This document shows, piece after piece, positions 11,734 to 57,761 of a DNA stretch of 64,000 nucleotides. Below the pieces are notes generated by a model that was not told the DNA's origin, made no database searches, and was given only the letters and a program-made list of their open reading frames with translations. Numbering within the stretch: position 1 is the first letter of the stretch; each line of letters begins with the position of its first letter. Both the position numbers and the translations under genes were made by a program. Source of the stretch: Escherichia coli O157:H7 (GTDB lineage Bacteria; Pseudomonadota; Gammaproteobacteria; Enterobacterales; Enterobacteriaceae); NCBI GenBank assembly GCA_013403045.1, contig GCA_013403045.1_3037.1, one strand, 5' to 3'.

Positions 11734-13242
11734 TTATAAATTAACTGTTTTCATTACGTAATTAAATTTTTCATCTGCGTAGCGCTGAATACGATCAATG
11801 CCGTGTTTTAAAAGATAGTTCAAATGAACATATTTCTTTTTCGTATTAGCAGATTTTGGCTTAACACCACAATCATCTATGAGGTCCCAGACTGTTGCTA
11901 TTGTCTTAGAACCATGCTTACGTAATACACGACCGATTGTTTGTAATACAATGATTTTTGATTTAACACCGTGCGCTAAAACAACGTGATGCAGATTTTT
12001 AACTGAAATACCAGTAGAAAATACACCATAACTAGCTACTATAATTATTCCTTTACCATTTTCAGCTAAGGTTTTCATTATATTGCGGGTTTCGGTATCA
12101 ACTTCCCCTGATACGTAATAAACTTTATCGTATTCATTTTTAATTAAATCGAAAATAGCTTTACCATGTGATACATGTTTAAACATGACAAAAGCGTTTT
12201 CATCTTTTTGCGCAAGCTTAATAGCTAATTTAGCGATCCATTTATTTCTTTTACTAAGCCCAGTAATAATTTTTATTTCTTCTTGATAAGTTTTTCCCTT
12301 TAATTTAGTAGTGAACTCATCGGGATAGCGAAGAAAAATACTATTAATTTTTAGCTCAGTTACTTGCCCATCTTCCATTAATTTAGAAGTCGTTACTGGC
12401 TTAAATATTTCACCAAACAATCCAACATACTGCATGATATTGGCTTTGCCATCACGTAATGAACCTGATAGACCAAATTTAAACATACAGTTATTTAAAC
12501 CAGATATGATAGATGAAATACTTTTTCCTGTAGCAAGATGGCATTCATCATTCATCATCATTCCAAACTGTGAGAACCATTCTTTTGGTTGTTTAACTAC
12601 AGTTTGCCATGTACCAACAACGACTGGTGCATCATTTTTATATTTATCATCTTTTGATGCTCCTCCGCCAATTTTCTTTATCATTGCATGACTGAATAAA
12701 CGATAGTCAACGAAGTCATCAGCCATCTGAGTTGTCAGAGCAGTTGTTGGAACAATGATAAGAATTTTACCTTCATAATTTTCCAAATAATACCGAGCAA
12801 GCAGAGCTTGAATTAACGATTTACCAGCGGATGTTGGAAGATTAAGAATTCTACGACGATTAACTAATCCTTCGAACACTGCATCTTTTTGATACCAGTG
12901 TGGTTCAATTCTTTTATTTCCTGAATAGATTTCTAATTTAGAAAGCCATTCATCAAAATCTTTTCTTGATAATTCTTCTTTTTCATTAATTTGTGGGTCA
13001 ATCCAGGCTTTATAGCCAAAGTTATCACAGAACTTTTTAATTTGCCCGACTAAGCCGAATGGAAGAAGACGATTATAATCTAAAAGACGGATTCGTCCAT
13101 CCCAGTTGCCATATCTGAAGCGAGGGTTAAATCTATATCCATCGGCCTCAAACGAAAAGAAATCTCTTAATTCGTGGAACGTGCTCTCTTCACAATCGAT
13201 GCGTACATGACTGAAGTCGTGAAAATGTACTTTAATATCCAT
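11734..13242 (-). CDS. uvsW: UvsW RNA-DNA / DNA helicase
   Basis: 502 aa, matches T4 UvsW length; helicase motifs (GKS, DECH). Confidence 0.9.
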   Translation of the reverse strand: MDIKVHFHDFSHVRIDCEESTFHELRDFFSFEADGYRFNPRFRYGNWDGRIRLLDYNRLLPFGLVGQIKKFCDNFGYKAWIDPQINEKEELSRKDFDEWLSKLEIYSGNKRIEPHWYQKDAVFEGLVNRRRILNLPTSAGKSLIQALLARYYLENYEGKILIIVPTTALTTQMADDFVDYRLFSHAMIKKIGGGASKDDKYKNDAPVVVGTWQTVVKQPKEWFSQFGMMMNDECHLATGKSISSIISGLNNCMFKFGLSGSLRDGKANIMQYVGLFGEIFKPVTTSKLMEDGQVTELKINSIFLRYPDEFTTKLKGKTYQEEIKIITGLSKRNKWIAKLAIKLAQKDENAFVMFKHVSHGKAIFDLIKNEYDKVYYVSGEVDTETRNIMKTLAENGKGIIIVASYGVFSTGISVKNLHHVVLAHGVKSKIIVLQTIGRVLRKHGSKTIATVWDLIDDCGVKPKSANTKKKYVHLNYLLKHGIDRIQRYADEKFNYVMKTVNL

Positions 13243-19006: not shown

Positions 19007-20572
19007 TTAGATACCTTTAACATATACACGGCGGAAGTAAGCGTTCTTACCAAGGCTGTTCAGGATAGAAGGCATACCGCTCTGAATGCGAGAAGCCGGA
19101 GCCTGAGCAGCGGATTCTGCAAATGGGTTGATACCGATACCGTAACGAGTTTTGAATCCCATTACTGGTTGGAAGTTCTTCGGATCAGAACCACGCAGTG
19201 GAGTCAGAGCTACATATGGAGCGTAGTAAATACCAGCATCCATTTCGTTCGGACCTTTATAACCTACAGTGAAATAATCCTGTTTAGCATACTGGTCGAT
19301 ATATACACGGTATTTACCACCCAGAACACCAGCAAATACTGACTTGGTAGTATCAGTGTTAAAGCCAGTTGCCAGACCCTGTGCAGCATAAGAAATGCCG
19401 GTATCAACTGAAGCCAGAACGTTAACTACGTTACGGGAAGCGATAATGAAGTTACCTTCACCACGACCGGTCTGACGAGCGATTTCAACTGCTTCTTTAT
19501 CAATCTGGAACAACAGAGCTTTAAAGGATTCACCAGCCCAGCGAGCACCACGAATATCGATTGGGTCCTGGAAGTCAAATACACCAGCTTTAGAACCCGG
19601 AGTCAGGGTCATACCAGATTTACCAACCTGTGCTGAGTAGTTAATCCAATCAACAACTTCACGGTTGATTTCCAGCATAATTTCGGTAGCCAGAATACCA
19701 GACAGTTCAGCATCAGCATCCATACCATGAACAGCGCGGAGGTCTTGTGCTAATTCGATAGAGTAAGCAGCTTTCAGCTGGCGAGATTTAGCTTCGATAA
19801 CTTGTTTATCGATACGGAAGCCCATTTCATTCCATGGGTTATCGGTAGAACCATTGAAACCTTCCTGAAGTTCAGCGATAGAAGTAGCCATACCTTCAGC
19901 GATTTCTACCAGTACACCAGCTTCCATTTGTTTCTTGATTTCAGCATCTAATTTAGCTGCATCATTTGCACTAGTATCAATTTGCTTAACTTCTGTAGCT
20001 TGCAGATACACAGTACCAGTGTCCTGGAAGAAGTGAGTGTAAATAGTTCCGACTTCAAGAGTATCACTTGCTTTCAAAGCAGCGAATTTCTTAGCAGCAC
20101 CCTGACCAGAGAACATTGCATCTGGACCATACATTGGGTGGAATGCTTCTTTAGCGCCGGAAGCGATTGGATCTTTACCATATACTGCGCGCAGCGCGAA
20201 TACCTGGCCAGTCGGGCTGTTCATTGGCTGAACACCGCAAATATCGAAAGCAATCAGGTTAGGAATGGCACGACGTACCATACCCATAACAGCTGGGCCA
20301 ATCTGAGTTACTGCGCCAGAAGTCTGACCTGCAGCGATGTTGGTAGCATTGTAACCGTGGTCACCACCGATTTCAGCTTCTGTTAAGAAAGAACCGAATG
20401 CCTGAGCAATTTTTTCGTCTTTATATTCCGGAGCTGTCTGGAAATCTTTTTCCTGGTTTTCAAAGATTTTAGCGATAATCGCTTGTTTGCTATTAGCAAT
20501 TTCCGGTAAACCTTCACCTTCCAGTAATGGCTTCCATTTGTTCAAAAGTTCAGCTTTAGTTTTGATAGTCAT
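19007..20572 (-). CDS. 23: major capsid protein gp23
   Basis: 521 aa; N-terminus MTIKTKAELLNKWKPLLEGEGLPEIANSK matches T4 gp23 from memory. Confidence 0.97.
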   Translation of the reverse strand: MTIKTKAELLNKWKPLLEGEGLPEIANSKQAIIAKIFENQEKDFQTAPEYKDEKIAQAFGSFLTEAEIGGDHGYNATNIAAGQTSGAVTQIGPAVMGMVRRAIPNLIAFDICGVQPMNSPTGQVFALRAVYGKDPIASGAKEAFHPMYGPDAMFSGQGAAKKFAALKASDTLEVGTIYTHFFQDTGTVYLQATEVKQIDTSANDAAKLDAEIKKQMEAGVLVEIAEGMATSIAELQEGFNGSTDNPWNEMGFRIDKQVIEAKSRQLKAAYSIELAQDLRAVHGMDADAELSGILATEIMLEINREVVDWINYSAQVGKSGMTLTPGSKAGVFDFQDPIDIRGARWAGESFKALLFQIDKEAVEIARQTGRGEGNFIIASRNVVNVLASVDTGISYAAQGLATGFNTDTTKSVFAGVLGGKYRVYIDQYAKQDYFTVGYKGPNEMDAGIYYAPYVALTPLRGSDPKNFQPVMGFKTRYGIGINPFAESAAQAPASRIQSGMPSILNSLGKNAYFRRVYVKGI

Positions 20573-27003: not shown

Positions 27004-30144
<3,141 letters not shown>

Positions 30145-47581: not shown

Positions 47582-48034
47582 ATGGCATATTCTGGAAAAT
47601 GGGTTCCTAAAAATATATCAAAGTATAGAGGTGACCCTAAAAAAATTACGTATAGATCAAATTGGGAAAAATTCTTTTTTGAATGGTTAGATAAAAATCC
47701 AGAAATTATTGCATGGGGTAGTGAAACAGCAGTAATTCCTTATTTTTGTAATGCCGAAGGGAAAAAACGTAGATACTTCATGGATATTTGGATGAAAGAT
47801 TCTTCTGGACAAGAATTTTTTATTGAAATAAAACCTAAAAAAGAAACACAACCACCAGTTAAACCAGCACATCTAACAACCGCAGCGAAGAAAAGATTTA
47901 TGAATGAAATTTATACATATTCTGTTAATACCGACAAATGGAAAGCAGCGCAAGCTTTAGCTGAAAAGCGTGGAATAAAATTTAGAATTCTAACAGAAGA
48001 TGGATTACGAGCTCTTGGCTTTAAGGGGGCATAA
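47582..48034 (+). CDS. 4: head completion protein gp4
   Basis: 150 aa; divergent from gene 53; late promoter upstream. Confidence 0.85.
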
Positions 48035-48858
48035 TGGCTATTTTTCAAATAATTAATGAAAGCACTCCCCAAGTTCCAAAGGTTAAGCAATCATTAAACG
48101 AAAAGAAATGGATTCAAATAGGTCTTGAATATAAAAAGGCCAAAGCAAAAGGAATGACAGGAAAGCAATTTGCTGAAGAAAGAGGAATCAAATACTCTAC
48201 GTTTACTTCAGCAATGTCAAAATATGCTTCAGGAATTAAAACGGCTGAAAAGATTCAAAAGCTTGAATCAAAACCAATGAATAAACTCAATAAGCAAGAA
48301 AGACAACTGCTTATGATAAATTCATTCAGACAAACATTGCGTGATAAAATTCGTAATGAAGGTGCAGCAATTAATAATAAAACCAGAAAGTGGTTTGCTG
48401 AAACTATTAAGCAAGTAAAAGGACATAAAGTTGTTCGCCCGCAGCCGGGACGAATATATGCTTTTGCTTATGATGCTAAACACAAGGAAACTCTTCCTTA
48501 CTGGGATAAATTTCCTTTAATAATTTACCTTGGTTTAGGTAAGCATAATTTAATGTATGGATTAAACTTGCACTATATTCCACCTAAAGCTCGTCAACAG
48601 TTTCTAGAAGAGCTTTTAAAGCAATATGCAAATACACCTACTATTACTAATAAAACGAAATTAAAAATTGATTGGAGTCAAGTGAAAGGATTTAGGGGTG
48701 CAGACCAAATGATTAAGGCATATATACCTGGTAATATTATGGGTAGCCTTGTTGAAATCGCCCCGAAAGACTGGGCGAACGTTGTGTTGATGCCACTTCA
48801 GCAGTTCGTTTCAAAAGGAAAACGTTTCTCTGCAAACAAAGTCTGGTCAAATATCTAA
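48034..48858 (+). CDS. 2: DNA end protector protein gp2
   Basis: 274 aa; synteny. Confidence 0.85.
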
Positions 48859-52230: not shown

Positions 52231-52746
52231 ATGAATATTTGTTTAGGTACTACAATTCCGCAGGGTTACGTAATTGATGTCACTACCTGGGAAAATGATG
52301 GTGACAACTATAAAACTAAAACACTGTTTGGCGTAGAAGAGCATGAAATCTTACAGTTCCAATATCTTTTAAAGAAGTTTAAAAGCAGACATTCTAGTAC
52401 TAAAGCTGAACGTTATTGTGGTAATGGCTTGTTCAGCGAGCAATCGCTTTTTATTTATGAATACTTGGTTGAAGGACTGTTCTCAGAACAACTTTATCCA
52501 GAATTCATTAAAAAGGTCTTTGATATAGAAGTTGACCTTGGTAATAAATCCGAAGAAGATGAAGAACGTGTATTTGACTTATTCTTTGTGAATGGTAATA
52601 AGATATTTGAAGGCCTTATTGATATTCTTGGTCATGCTTCTGAATATTATGACTATGATTTCTTGCGTGTAGTTGAGAGTGTTAAATACTCTTATATAGA
52701 AGAAGAAATTGTTTTGCCGACCGTTAAAATGTTTAATTTGCTTTAA
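52231..52746 (+). CDS. hypothetical protein
   Basis: ORF; ATG at 52231 after the GTG listed by the track. Confidence 0.55.
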   Translation: MNICLGTTIPQGYVIDVTTWENDGDNYKTKTLFGVEEHEILQFQYLLKKFKSRHSSTKAERYCGNGLFSEQSLFIYEYLVEGLFSEQLYPEFIKKVFDIEVDLGNKSEEDEERVFDLFFVNGNKIFEGLIDILGHASEYYDYDFLRVVESVKYSYIEEEIVLPTVKMFNLL

Positions 52747-52843
52747 GAATTATTTGTTATTATTAACTCATACCGCACTGATTAATACCCTCTATCATCA
52801 GAGAAAGTCCAATAGGCAGAACAGGAGATTGGATTCTTTTAAT

Positions 52844-54540: not shown

Positions 54541-54645
54541 GCAAATAAGAAATATGGGAACAAGCTGGACCTCATGATTCTGTGAGGGATTCCCGCCAAC
54601 CTGTAATAAGGTCGAGCCCAAGTGCGGTAATGGGTAAATACAGAA

Positions 54646-55233: not shown

Positions 55234-55559
55234 TGACAGACACTCAGCTTTTCGAATATCTTTATTTTTCGCCAAAAACTATTAAAAATAAATTGGTGAA
55301 TCATTTTGAAATTTTGGCAAATAACAACGTCTTGAGCGAATTTTATCCTAAGCAATACAAATTACAAAAAGGCGTATTCAAAGGATGCAGAGTTTTGTGT
55401 ACTGCTCCTAATGCACGGCTAATGAATAAAATTCCATATTTTACCATGGAATTTATTGATGGTCCTTTTAAAGGACTAATCACACAGAGTTTAATGGCAT
55501 ATGATTCTGAGCCATTTTTAATTAAAGAACAATCTTGGATAAATTTATTTTCTAATTGA
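55230..55559 (+). CDS. hypothetical protein
   Basis: ATG overlaps the upstream stop (ATGA), suggesting translational coupling. Confidence 0.5.
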
Positions 55560-55566
55560 GGTTTAT

Positions 55567-55929
55567 ATGAAAGCATATCAAATTCTTGAAGGCACACATA
55601 AAGGTACTATTTATTTTGAAGATGGTATTCAAGCACGAATTATTGTCTCTAAAACCTTTAAAGAGGACTCTTTTGTAGACCCAGAAATTTTCTATGGTTT
55701 GCATGCCCGTGAAATTGAAATTGAGCAACAGCCTACAGTTAAAATTGAAGGTGGTCAACACCTGAACGTTAACGTTCTGCGTCGCGAAACTCTGGAAGAT
55801 GCAGTTAAGCATCCGGAAAAATATCCGCAGCTGACCATCCGTGTATCCGGTTATGCAGTTCGCTTTAACTCTCTGACTCCGGAACAGCAGCGCGACGTTA
55901 TCGCTCGTACCTTTACTGAGAGTTTGTAA
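55567..55929 (+). CDS. autonomous glycyl radical cofactor (GrcA/YfiD-like; T4 Y06I-like)
   Basis: C-terminal 60 aa ([60 protein letters not shown]) matches E. coli GrcA from memory, including the radical Gly in RVSGYAVRF. Confidence 0.85.
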
Positions 55930-56150
55930 TGGCAAAGATAATTATTGAAGGTTCTAAAGATGTGCTAAATGCTTTCGCCGAGTGGTTTAGTAATTCAGGC
56001 GAACAGCAATTTAATGAAGCCTGGAATATGGGTGATATTGATGGAATTTATCCTACGACAGAAATTTCTGTTCAAGGATATGGCATTCATGAACCTATTC
56101 GTTTAGTTGAATATGATTTATGTACTGGTGAGGAAGTCAAATATGATTGA
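55929..56150 (+). CDS. hypothetical protein
   Basis: 73-aa ORF, start overlapping the upstream stop. Confidence 0.5.
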   Translation: MAKIIIEGSKDVLNAFAEWFSNSGEQQFNEAWNMGDIDGIYPTTEISVQGYGIHEPIRLVEYDLCTGEEVKYD

Positions 56151-57215: not shown

Positions 57216-57761
57216 ATGAGAAAAGCACTACTCGCTGGTCTATTGGCCATTTCAATGATGGCACATAGCTCCGAGCATACTTTCAGTAATGTCCAACTCG
57301 ATAACATGCGTTACGCGTATCAATTCGGGGAACAATTTTCTAAGGATGGAAAATATAAAACACACAAAAATATCCACAAGAGCGGATTAGGTCATATAAT
57401 GGCTGCTATTTTATGGCAAGAAAGCTCTGGCGGAGTTAATTTAAAATCTAAACCAAAGCATCACGCCTACGGAATGTTCCAAAATTATTTGCCTACTATG
57501 CGAGCAAGAGTTAAGGAACTTGGTTATAATATGACCGATGCTGAAATAAAAAGAATGTTGAATAAACGATCCAATTCAGCTTCCTGGGCGTACATTGAAC
57601 TTTCTTATTGGTTAAATATACATAAGGGCGATATAAGAAAAGCAATATCCTCTTATAATTCGGGATGGAATGTTAAAGCAGGTTCTAAATATGCTTCTGA
57701 AGTCCTAGAAAAGGCTAATTACCTTAAAAATAATAAACTTTTGGAAATAGTAAATGACTAA
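57216..57761 (+). CDS. secreted lytic transglycosylase-like protein (SLT domain)
   Basis: N-terminal signal peptide MRKALLAGLLAISMMAHS; ILWQESSGG ... YGMFQ resembles the SLT catalytic region. Confidence 0.6.
   Translation: MRKALLAGLLAISMMAHSSEHTFSNVQLDNMRYAYQFGEQFSKDGKYKTHKNIHKSGLGHIMAAILWQESSGGVNLKSKPKHHAYGMFQNYLPTMRARVKELGYNMTDAEIKRMLNKRSNSASWAYIELSYWLNIHKGDIRKAISSYNSGWNVKAGSKYASEVLEKANYLKNNKLLEIVND

Follow-up and report, generated by a model that had tools for sequence, protein, structure and literature searches.

The window (the whole stretch of DNA that was analysed, 64,000 nucleotides in length) contains the gene vs.6, which begins with an ATG start codon and is predicted to encode a glycyl radical cofactor of the GrcA/YfiD type; the gene and the features within and around it are given in Table 1. 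The region was found to be 100% identical to Escherichia phage AR1 (Tequatrovirus) across 6.1 kb (6,129 nt) around vs.6, and the AR1 record annotates the same open reading frame as vs.6, 'autonomous glycyl radical cofactor', within the gene order e - Ip4 - vs.8 - vs.7 - vs.6 - vs.5-like - vs.4 - vs.3 - regB. Phage T4 carries a single GrcA-like gene, Y06I, the product of which shares 99.2% amino acid identity (119/120) with the window protein, and this identity, along with its placement in the early-gene cluster from e to regB, flanked by vs.7 and vs.5, places the window gene in the T4 vs.6 orthologous group. Comparison with Y06I, as proposed in the earlier note, showed that T4 shares the gene neighbourhood vs.8-vs.7-vs.6-vs.5 and also the E. 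coli-derived tract (described below), the differences being one amino acid in the 5' half, codon 73 (CGC in the window, not CGT) and codon 118 (GAG, not GAA). Synteny around vs.6 was also the same in Mosigvirus and Jiaodavirus records.

Table 1. Features at and around vs.6, with window positions, strand and the basis on which each was assigned.
Feature	Position	Strand	Basis
vs.6 coding sequence, 120 aa, T4 Y06I ortholog, GrcA/YfiD-like autonomous glycyl radical cofactor	55567..55929	+	ORF list, AR1 annotation, Pfam, PDB
Putative Shine-Dalgarno sequence of vs.6 (GAGG), 5 nt 5' of the ATG, overlapping the vs.7 stop	55558..55561	+	Read from the sequence; role inferred
Phage-type AT-rich 5' part of vs.6, codons 1-59 and first base of codon 60	55567..55744	+	Codon alignment, GC3, hhalign
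Predicted conversion tract of host origin, identical to E. coli K-12 grcA over 175 nt	55745..55919	+	Megablast, codon alignment, maximum chi-square
Radical glycine codon GGT (Gly95 = GrcA Gly102 = PflB Gly734)	55849..55851	+	Codon alignment, motif check, PflB alignment
Phage-type 3' end, GAG AGT TTG TAA (host GAA AGC CTG TAA)	55920..55929	+	Codon alignment
Downstream ORF, 73 aa, ar1_122 / vs.5-like, translationally coupled to vs.6	55929..56150	+	ORF list, AR1 annotation

A Pfam search of the vs.6 protein identified a Gly_radical domain in residues 60-101 (67 bits; cutoff 22.2) and no further domain, while the same search of the downstream 73-amino-acid ORF returned no family. The NMR structure of E. 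coli YfiD/GrcA (PDB 6owr) was matched with an E value of 9e-42. The product is a small stand-alone glycyl-radical protein (~14 kDa), as are members of the GrcA/YfiD family (TIGR04365, IPR011140), and has the family's RVSGYAV motif and radical glycine near the C-terminus (RVSGYAVRF, residues 92-100). Its score against the full-length NCBIfam equivalog model TIGR04365 (154.9 bits, residues 20-120 aligned to model positions 25-126) falls below the trusted cutoff of 170, because the N-terminal half has diverged. Relative to E. coli GrcA (YfiD, 6OWR) the C-terminal 60 residues are the same except for I60/V67, and the radical glycine and RVSGYAV are common to both; the vs.6 protein is, however, 7 residues shorter, only ~30% identical in its N-terminal half and devoid of NSFWLLD and ARC, which are conserved motifs in bacterial GrcA. 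The genomic settings also differ, as vs.6 lies in a lytic phage early-gene cluster whereas E. coli grcA lies between ung and eamB.

Full-length glycyl radical enzymes possess, besides the radical domain, a ten-stranded barrel of ~750 amino acids and catalytic cysteines. The Gly_radical segment of vs.6 aligns with residues 697-759 in the C-terminal domain of PflB, which is alike in fold and is the piece that a spare part replaces, but the PflB signature MNREMLLDAMEN...TQSM differs from the tract and the vs.6 protein has no catalytic barrel. Against the model for the full-length enzymes (PflB/TdcE, TIGR01255) the protein scored 89 bits (cutoff 994), the match being limited to model positions 680-744 of 744; the label 'pyruvate formate-lyase' in several phage records is therefore a misnomer. 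Other misnomers for vs.6 homologs ('2-ketobutyrate formate-lyase', 'ribonucleotide reductase subunit' and 'acetyltransferase-like') were seen in many GenBank records. Homologs were identified in about 1,590 phage records, from T4-like, T5-like and jumbo phages.

A promoter and terminator scan around vs.6 returned nothing beyond shuffled expectation, and a tRNA and Rfam search of the window returned no hits. The intergenic region between Ip4 and vs.8 (54541-54645) has a G+C content of 0.46-0.49, against 0.36 for the window, with no tRNA, Rfam family or E. coli match. The first 234 nt of the AR1 stretch that was compared (in the ar1_129 region, approximately window positions 52567-52800) were not colinear with the window, which could reflect an indel or a small local difference.

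When vs.6 was aligned by codon with grcA of E. coli K-12, codons 61-117 were identical at every base, all synonymous sites included (57/57 codons), and the longest exact run extended over 175 nt (55745-55919). This tract encodes the glycyl-radical domain (EGGQH...RVSGYAVRF...ARTFT). A maximum chi-square analysis placed the breakpoint at 55745 (chi2 114, compared to a permutation maximum of 19; 2,000 permutations, P <0.0005). By megablast, all 5,426 complete E. coli genomes matched window positions 55745-55933, under grcA, at 96-98.4% identity, and the same search against the 5,426 genomes gave no further E. coli match in the 64-kb window.

Composition was found to shift quantitatively at the same point. 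G+C content was 0.25-0.31 in the 5' half of vs.6 and 0.44-0.52 in the 3' half, while GC3 rose from 0.20 in the 5' half to 0.44 in the tract; the background was 0.23 +/- 0.06 (15,107 57-codon windows from the ORFs of the window), which puts the tract in the top 0.25% of such windows. All five leucine codons of the tract are CTG (background 7%) and all three proline codons are CCG (background 13%). The earlier note had proposed, from the sequence alone, that the C-terminal ~60 codons match E. coli GrcA from about 55745, that they use host-preferred codons unlike the AT-rich 5' half and that they represent recently acquired host DNA; its boundary proved accurate to the base, and its codon-usage claim and its reading of the origin were both upheld. 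Windows of 57 codons with a GC3 within 0.05 of the tract were also seen in the ORFs at 670-2727, 11734-13242, 19007-20572, 28823-29317, 48034-48858 and 57216-57761; as these have no E. coli megablast match, high GC3 alone is no sign of host DNA in the window.

The donor was sought among bacterial grcA genes. Identity to the tract was 100% for K-12, 98.2% for another Escherichia species, 91.8% for Citrobacter, 88.3% for K. pneumoniae and 82.5% for Salmonella, and the Tequatrovirus and Mosigvirus tracts grouped with Escherichia in 99.95% of bootstrap replicates. Because the grcA gene of Salmonella encodes nearly the same peptide at so much lower a DNA identity, the exact run exceeds what protein conservation would produce and the tract is best regarded as recent host DNA. 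The gene pflB was ruled out as donor, with 79.5% nucleotide identity to the tract (98-100% for grcA). Two observations argue for transfer from host to phage: no comparable break separates the two halves of bacterial grcA (between E. coli and Citrobacter, identity is 88.6% for the 5' part and 91.8% for the tract), and the codon usage of the tract is that of the host.

Merging of host reads into a phage assembly is of negligible probability, as host DNA does occur in phage lysates but the same mosaic and junctions are present in 492 phage records (at least 95% identity over the whole gene) and 157 more (90-95%), among them T4, records from many laboratories and countries and metagenome contigs, with a continuous reading frame and last three codons of phage type. 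It is also extremely improbable that grcA was acquired in the distant past and kept near-identical by purifying selection on the radical domain with no recent transfer. The peptide is indeed extremely conserved, the 60-amino-acid C-terminus being the same across enterobacteria (E. coli, Citrobacter, Serratia and Pectobacterium) and RB16-like phages. Protein selection does not fix synonymous sites, however, and bacteria and phages with the same peptide are 82-92% identical in DNA, whereas AR1 matches the host at all 57 codons; a long residence is also hard to reconcile with host-biased codons in a genome that is AT-rich.

The first 59 codons of vs.6 share 48% nucleotide and 34% amino acid identity with K-12 grcA. 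When only the N-terminal halves were compared as profiles (8 phage and 12 bacterial sequences; hhalign), a significant alignment was obtained (probability 92.3%, E = 5.6e-7, 48 columns), in line with a GrcA/YfiD protein that is homologous to bacterial GrcA in its N-terminal half as well. As judged by this comparison, the 5' half is a diverged GrcA N-terminus and not unrelated phage sequence. Its identity tracks phage taxonomy, the AR1-type 5' half being 89-90% identical to that of Mosigvirus and 73-74% identical to that of Jiaodavirus. At the other end of the gene, the last three codons differ from K-12 grcA by synonymous changes only, and a phage-type ending (GAG AGT CTA) is also found in RB16/KP15-like homologs without a host tract. 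In CC31-, RB16/RB43- and KP15-like phages the 120-amino-acid gene also occupies this position; its synonymous sites are A/T-rich from end to end, and its tract region shares only 77-85% identity with any grcA in a panel of 81 bacterial genes.

Since phage-type sequence stands on both sides, the host tract is an internal patch in an old phage homolog, which points to gene conversion and not to fusion. The joining of an unrelated phage ORF to a 3' piece of grcA captured from the host, by illegitimate recombination, is accordingly very unlikely: homology drops sharply at 55745, and the N-terminal 60 amino acids alone match no NCBIfam family, but the N-terminal halves are significantly similar on their own, the full-length NCBIfam GrcA model extends across residues 20-120 and homologs without the host-like tract share the architecture. 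The earlier note had termed vs.6 a chimeric gene, and this holds insofar as a host tract lies in a phage gene; it does not hold in the sense of unrelated parts. 'Chimeric' is better understood here, from the alignments, as gene conversion, in which part of an old grcA homolog of the phage was replaced by homologous sequence.

The vs.6 stop codon overlaps the start of the next gene (TAATG), and a GAGAG sequence (55918-55922) sits 6 nt 5' of that ATG (55929). GAGAG or GAGG precedes the next ATG in most phage lineages, while T4 itself has GAAAG. It could be speculated that the right edge of the tract is held by a putative Shine-Dalgarno sequence of the next gene and by translational coupling; the idea is plausible but weak, because T4 has GAAAG at this place. 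Variation in the last three codons was considered as evidence for different junctions and was found to be uninformative, each variant being a single synonymous transition.

A similar mosaic was observed in Jiaodavirus (Klebsiella phages), where GC3 was 0.22-0.25 in the 5' half of vs.6 and 0.60-0.65 in the tract, and where the tract carries the signature ETLLDAVEH in place of the ETLEDAVKH of the E. coli type. A 32-mer from the Jiaodavirus tract retrieved 24 metagenome contigs with full-length bacterial grcA, and the retrieved bacterial locus was 99.4-99.7% identical over 1.5 kb to that of K. pneumoniae (srmB-grcA-ung). Jiaodavirus tracts were 94.2-97.7% identical to K. pneumoniae-type grcA and 88% identical to that of E. 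coli, with exact runs to K. pneumoniae grcA of up to 158 nt. These runs start at gene nt 181 (nt 179 in AR1) and end at about nt 338 (nt 353 in AR1). In total, 134 phage records matched K. pneumoniae grcA at 90% identity or more (106 at 95-99% and 28 at 90-95%); among the matches listed, every listed Klebsiella-phage match included, the match started at nt 199-208 of K. pneumoniae grcA, mostly at nt 202. Between Tequatrovirus and Jiaodavirus the tracts are 88% identical, as are the donor genes (88.3%), compared to the 73-74% of the 5' halves.

The K. pneumoniae tract was also found on a metagenome contig (L176). Another contig (L108, IMGVR_UViG_2974754850, 167 kb) carries a Jiaodavirus-like vs.6, from locus position 401, which is broken by a 1-nt deletion such that the ORF stops after 49 amino acids; its K. 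pneumoniae-type tract is intact 3' of the frameshift, and the locus may be a pseudogene or contain a sequencing error. A third independent event, in Slopekvirus, was considered on the basis of the 174-kb Klebsiella phage vB_Kpn_AM_K5 and was rejected, as that phage is listed under Jiaodavirus. The tracts of KP15-like phages share only 81% identity with K. pneumoniae.

The alignments indicate that host-to-phage gene conversion has occurred at least twice, from E. coli into Tequatrovirus/Mosigvirus and from K. pneumoniae into Jiaodavirus. We therefore consider it highly probable, on sequence grounds, that vs.6 is an old phage grcA homolog whose radical-domain half has been overwritten by a host allele on at least two occasions.

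An E. coli or K. pneumoniae tract was retained by phages whose isolation hosts were Salmonella, Yersinia, Hafnia or Shigella. Two examples are Salmonella phage PSE-D1 (L168), with a K. pneumoniae-type tract, and Salmonella phage pSe_SNUABM_01 (L169), with an E. coli-type tract. There was no Salmonella-type tract in the phage records searched (best match 83.8%), from which it follows that conversion is episodic and not universal, and that the tract reflects past hosts and not the isolation host.

These distributions bear on whether conversion is adaptive, with selection for a radical domain that matches host GrcA (for PflA recognition or PflB docking), or for host codons, carrying converted alleles through sweeps. 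Tract type does follow host clade, E. coli phages having ETLEDAVKH (E. coli type) and both Jiaodavirus and the KP15-like Slopekvirus having ETLLDAVEH (K. pneumoniae type), and tract diversity is low relative to the flanks, as in a sweep. Such selection nonetheless seems unlikely to be the explanation, as the host types differ at two amino acid positions only, the E. coli tract is kept by Salmonella, Yersinia, Hafnia and Shigella isolates, and the E. coli-type peptide is found with no conversion in RB16-like phages that infect E. coli. As the RB16-like peptide is encoded by DNA that is not host-like, homology alone may have produced the tract, as a neutral by-product.

Other homologs were screened for similar tracts. 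A recent tract in the homologs of T5-like, jumbo, Aeromonas and oral-metagenome phages was unconvincing (72-86% identity to any bacterium of the panel). Nine IMG/VR contigs of ~32-154 kb (L101-L106, L113, L118 and L120) carry vs.6-like genes with a Pasteurellaceae-type C-terminal signature (NPDKY...VITRTF) and reach up to 86% DNA identity to Haemophilus parainfluenzae grcA (86% in L103); no near-identical donor for them was present in the bacterial panel, and from its signature the group may be another host-matched lineage. The IMG/VR contig L111 contains a full-length bacterial-type grcA (88.8% identical to Yersinia over 384 nt), and contigs L152-L162 contain pflB C-termini, not grcA; both are suggestive of bacterial host sequence in contigs that carry a viral label.

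The E. coli tract is carried by both Tequatrovirus (AR1, T4) and Mosigvirus (PhAPEC2, Shf125875, KAW3E185, LF82-5). Between the two genera the vs.7/vs.5 flanks are 74-76% identical, the vs.6 5' half 89-90% and the tract 96-99%, the last being as close as the tracts are to E. coli. Synonymous codon differences numbered ~12/54 in the 5' half and 1-4/57 in the tract in five of six Mosigviruses (P = 0.0008-0.03), while the sixth, KAW3E185, had 7/57 in the tract (P = 0.31). The AR1 tract is the K-12 allele, whereas that of T4 is identical at 171/171 positions to a different natural E. coli allele and at 170/171 to K-12, the two tracts differing at codon 73. When seven E. coli alleles and one allele of another Escherichia species were examined, 4 of 5 polymorphic sites were also variable among the phages with the same bases (1.5 expected; P = 0.024, third positions). 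The statistical significance of this overlap is only modest, and parallel synonymous transitions could also account for it.

On these comparisons several conversions from E. coli are probably the better account, although the data also fit a single conversion from E. coli, after which the converted gene passed from phage to phage between Tequatrovirus and Mosigvirus in co-infections, with a separate event in Jiaodavirus. Spread from one conversion is a genuine, if lesser, possibility: the left and right junctions of the tract are identical in both genera, which agrees equally well with one conversion and with several, and the 5' half of vs.6 exceeds the flanks (~75%) in identity, suggesting movement of the whole gene between genera. 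Against it stand the lower synonymous divergence of the tract than of the 5' half in five of the six Mosigvirus comparisons, the different natural alleles at codon 73 in AR1 and T4 and the coincidence of phage variants with E. coli polymorphisms, although none of the three is decisive.

Both vs.6 and the biochemical role of its product have been described before, the role being textbook-level knowledge for glycyl radical enzymes. PMC8683613 reports, after Wagner et al. (2001), that T4 Y06I is activated in vitro by PFL activase and reconstitutes O2-fragmented PFL, and describes it as one of only two spare-part proteins validated by experiment. By analogy with this ortholog (99.2% identical), the window protein would be a PflA-activated cofactor which restores O2-cleaved PflB, and the suggestion in the earlier note that a phage cofactor could repair oxygen-damaged pyruvate formate-lyase agrees with that biochemistry. 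Host PflA would install the radical on Gly95, and the vs.6 protein would then dock onto pyruvate formate-lyase cleaved by oxygen at Gly734. Under the conditions of a microaerobic, gut-like host, docking may restore production of acetyl-CoA and formate once infection has silenced host gene expression, such that the fermentative supply of acetyl-CoA and ATP would be sustained.

As to the origin of the tract, T4-like phages have long possessed a complete, AT-rich grcA homolog within the cluster vs.8-vs.7-vs.6-vs.5. Protein conservation of the radical domain keeps phage and host DNA at ~80% identity, which would permit homologous recombination during infection; judging by the alignments, no other phage sequence in the window comes close enough to a host gene (~80%) for pairing. 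The alignments show that codons 61-117 were overwritten by the host grcA allele, with the left edge where phage-host homology ends and the right edge shortly ahead of the stop codon, by a few codons. Host DNA fragments could have invaded by way of the recombination-dependent replication of the phage, a UvsX-type join-copy pathway being the likely route; efficient recombination of T4 with homologous plasmid DNA that contains cytosine is established knowledge. The pathway is one that we infer, because T4 degrades host DNA and its own DNA carries modified cytosines. Whether T-even-type phages repeatedly overwrite the radical half of vs.6 with the grcA allele of their current enterobacterial host, such that the tract is a dated record of host history, is a question on which we lean, by a small degree, towards an affirmative answer.

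Intragenic recombination between host and phage in psbA/psbD of T4-like cyanophages was reportedly described by Zeidner et al. in 2005. Such recombination, with patchy G+C content, is documented for these genes (Sullivan et al. 2006, PMC1484495). Recurrent host-templated conversion of vs.6 resembles cyanophage psbA mosaicism and is an evolutionary pattern of a known kind: in both cases a metabolic gene in T4-like phages exchanges segments with the host, and the type tends to follow host range, with exceptions. The vs.6 case differs from psbA/psbD in that a single block with base-exact junctions is involved, with up to 100% identity to the allele of a named host species; in that the phages are enterobacterial T-even phages with modified DNA and the direction is from host to phage only; and in that the same gene segment appears to have been replaced from two different host species.

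A review notes that there are few clues as to how lateral transfer into T4-related genomes occurs (PMC2993671), and in the papers searched vs.6 is mentioned for its Gly_radical domain only (PMC1524935). No published account of the host-identical vs.6 tract or its recurrence was found in a search that lay outside Wagner 2001, Miller 2003 and Mosig 2001. What is added here is a base-resolved case of recent host-to-phage conversion, independent from two host species, in lytic T-even-type phages; vs.6 is the sole place in this 64-kb T-even stretch with visible host DNA, and the donor species can be named. As read from its sequence, the locus suggests that plain homology-guided conversion from the host chromosome occurs in nature, and the tract may mark the recent host history of uncultured T4-like phages. 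If repeated overwriting is true, vs.6 would provide a natural, base-resolved example of host DNA entering T4-like genomes by homology-guided conversion.
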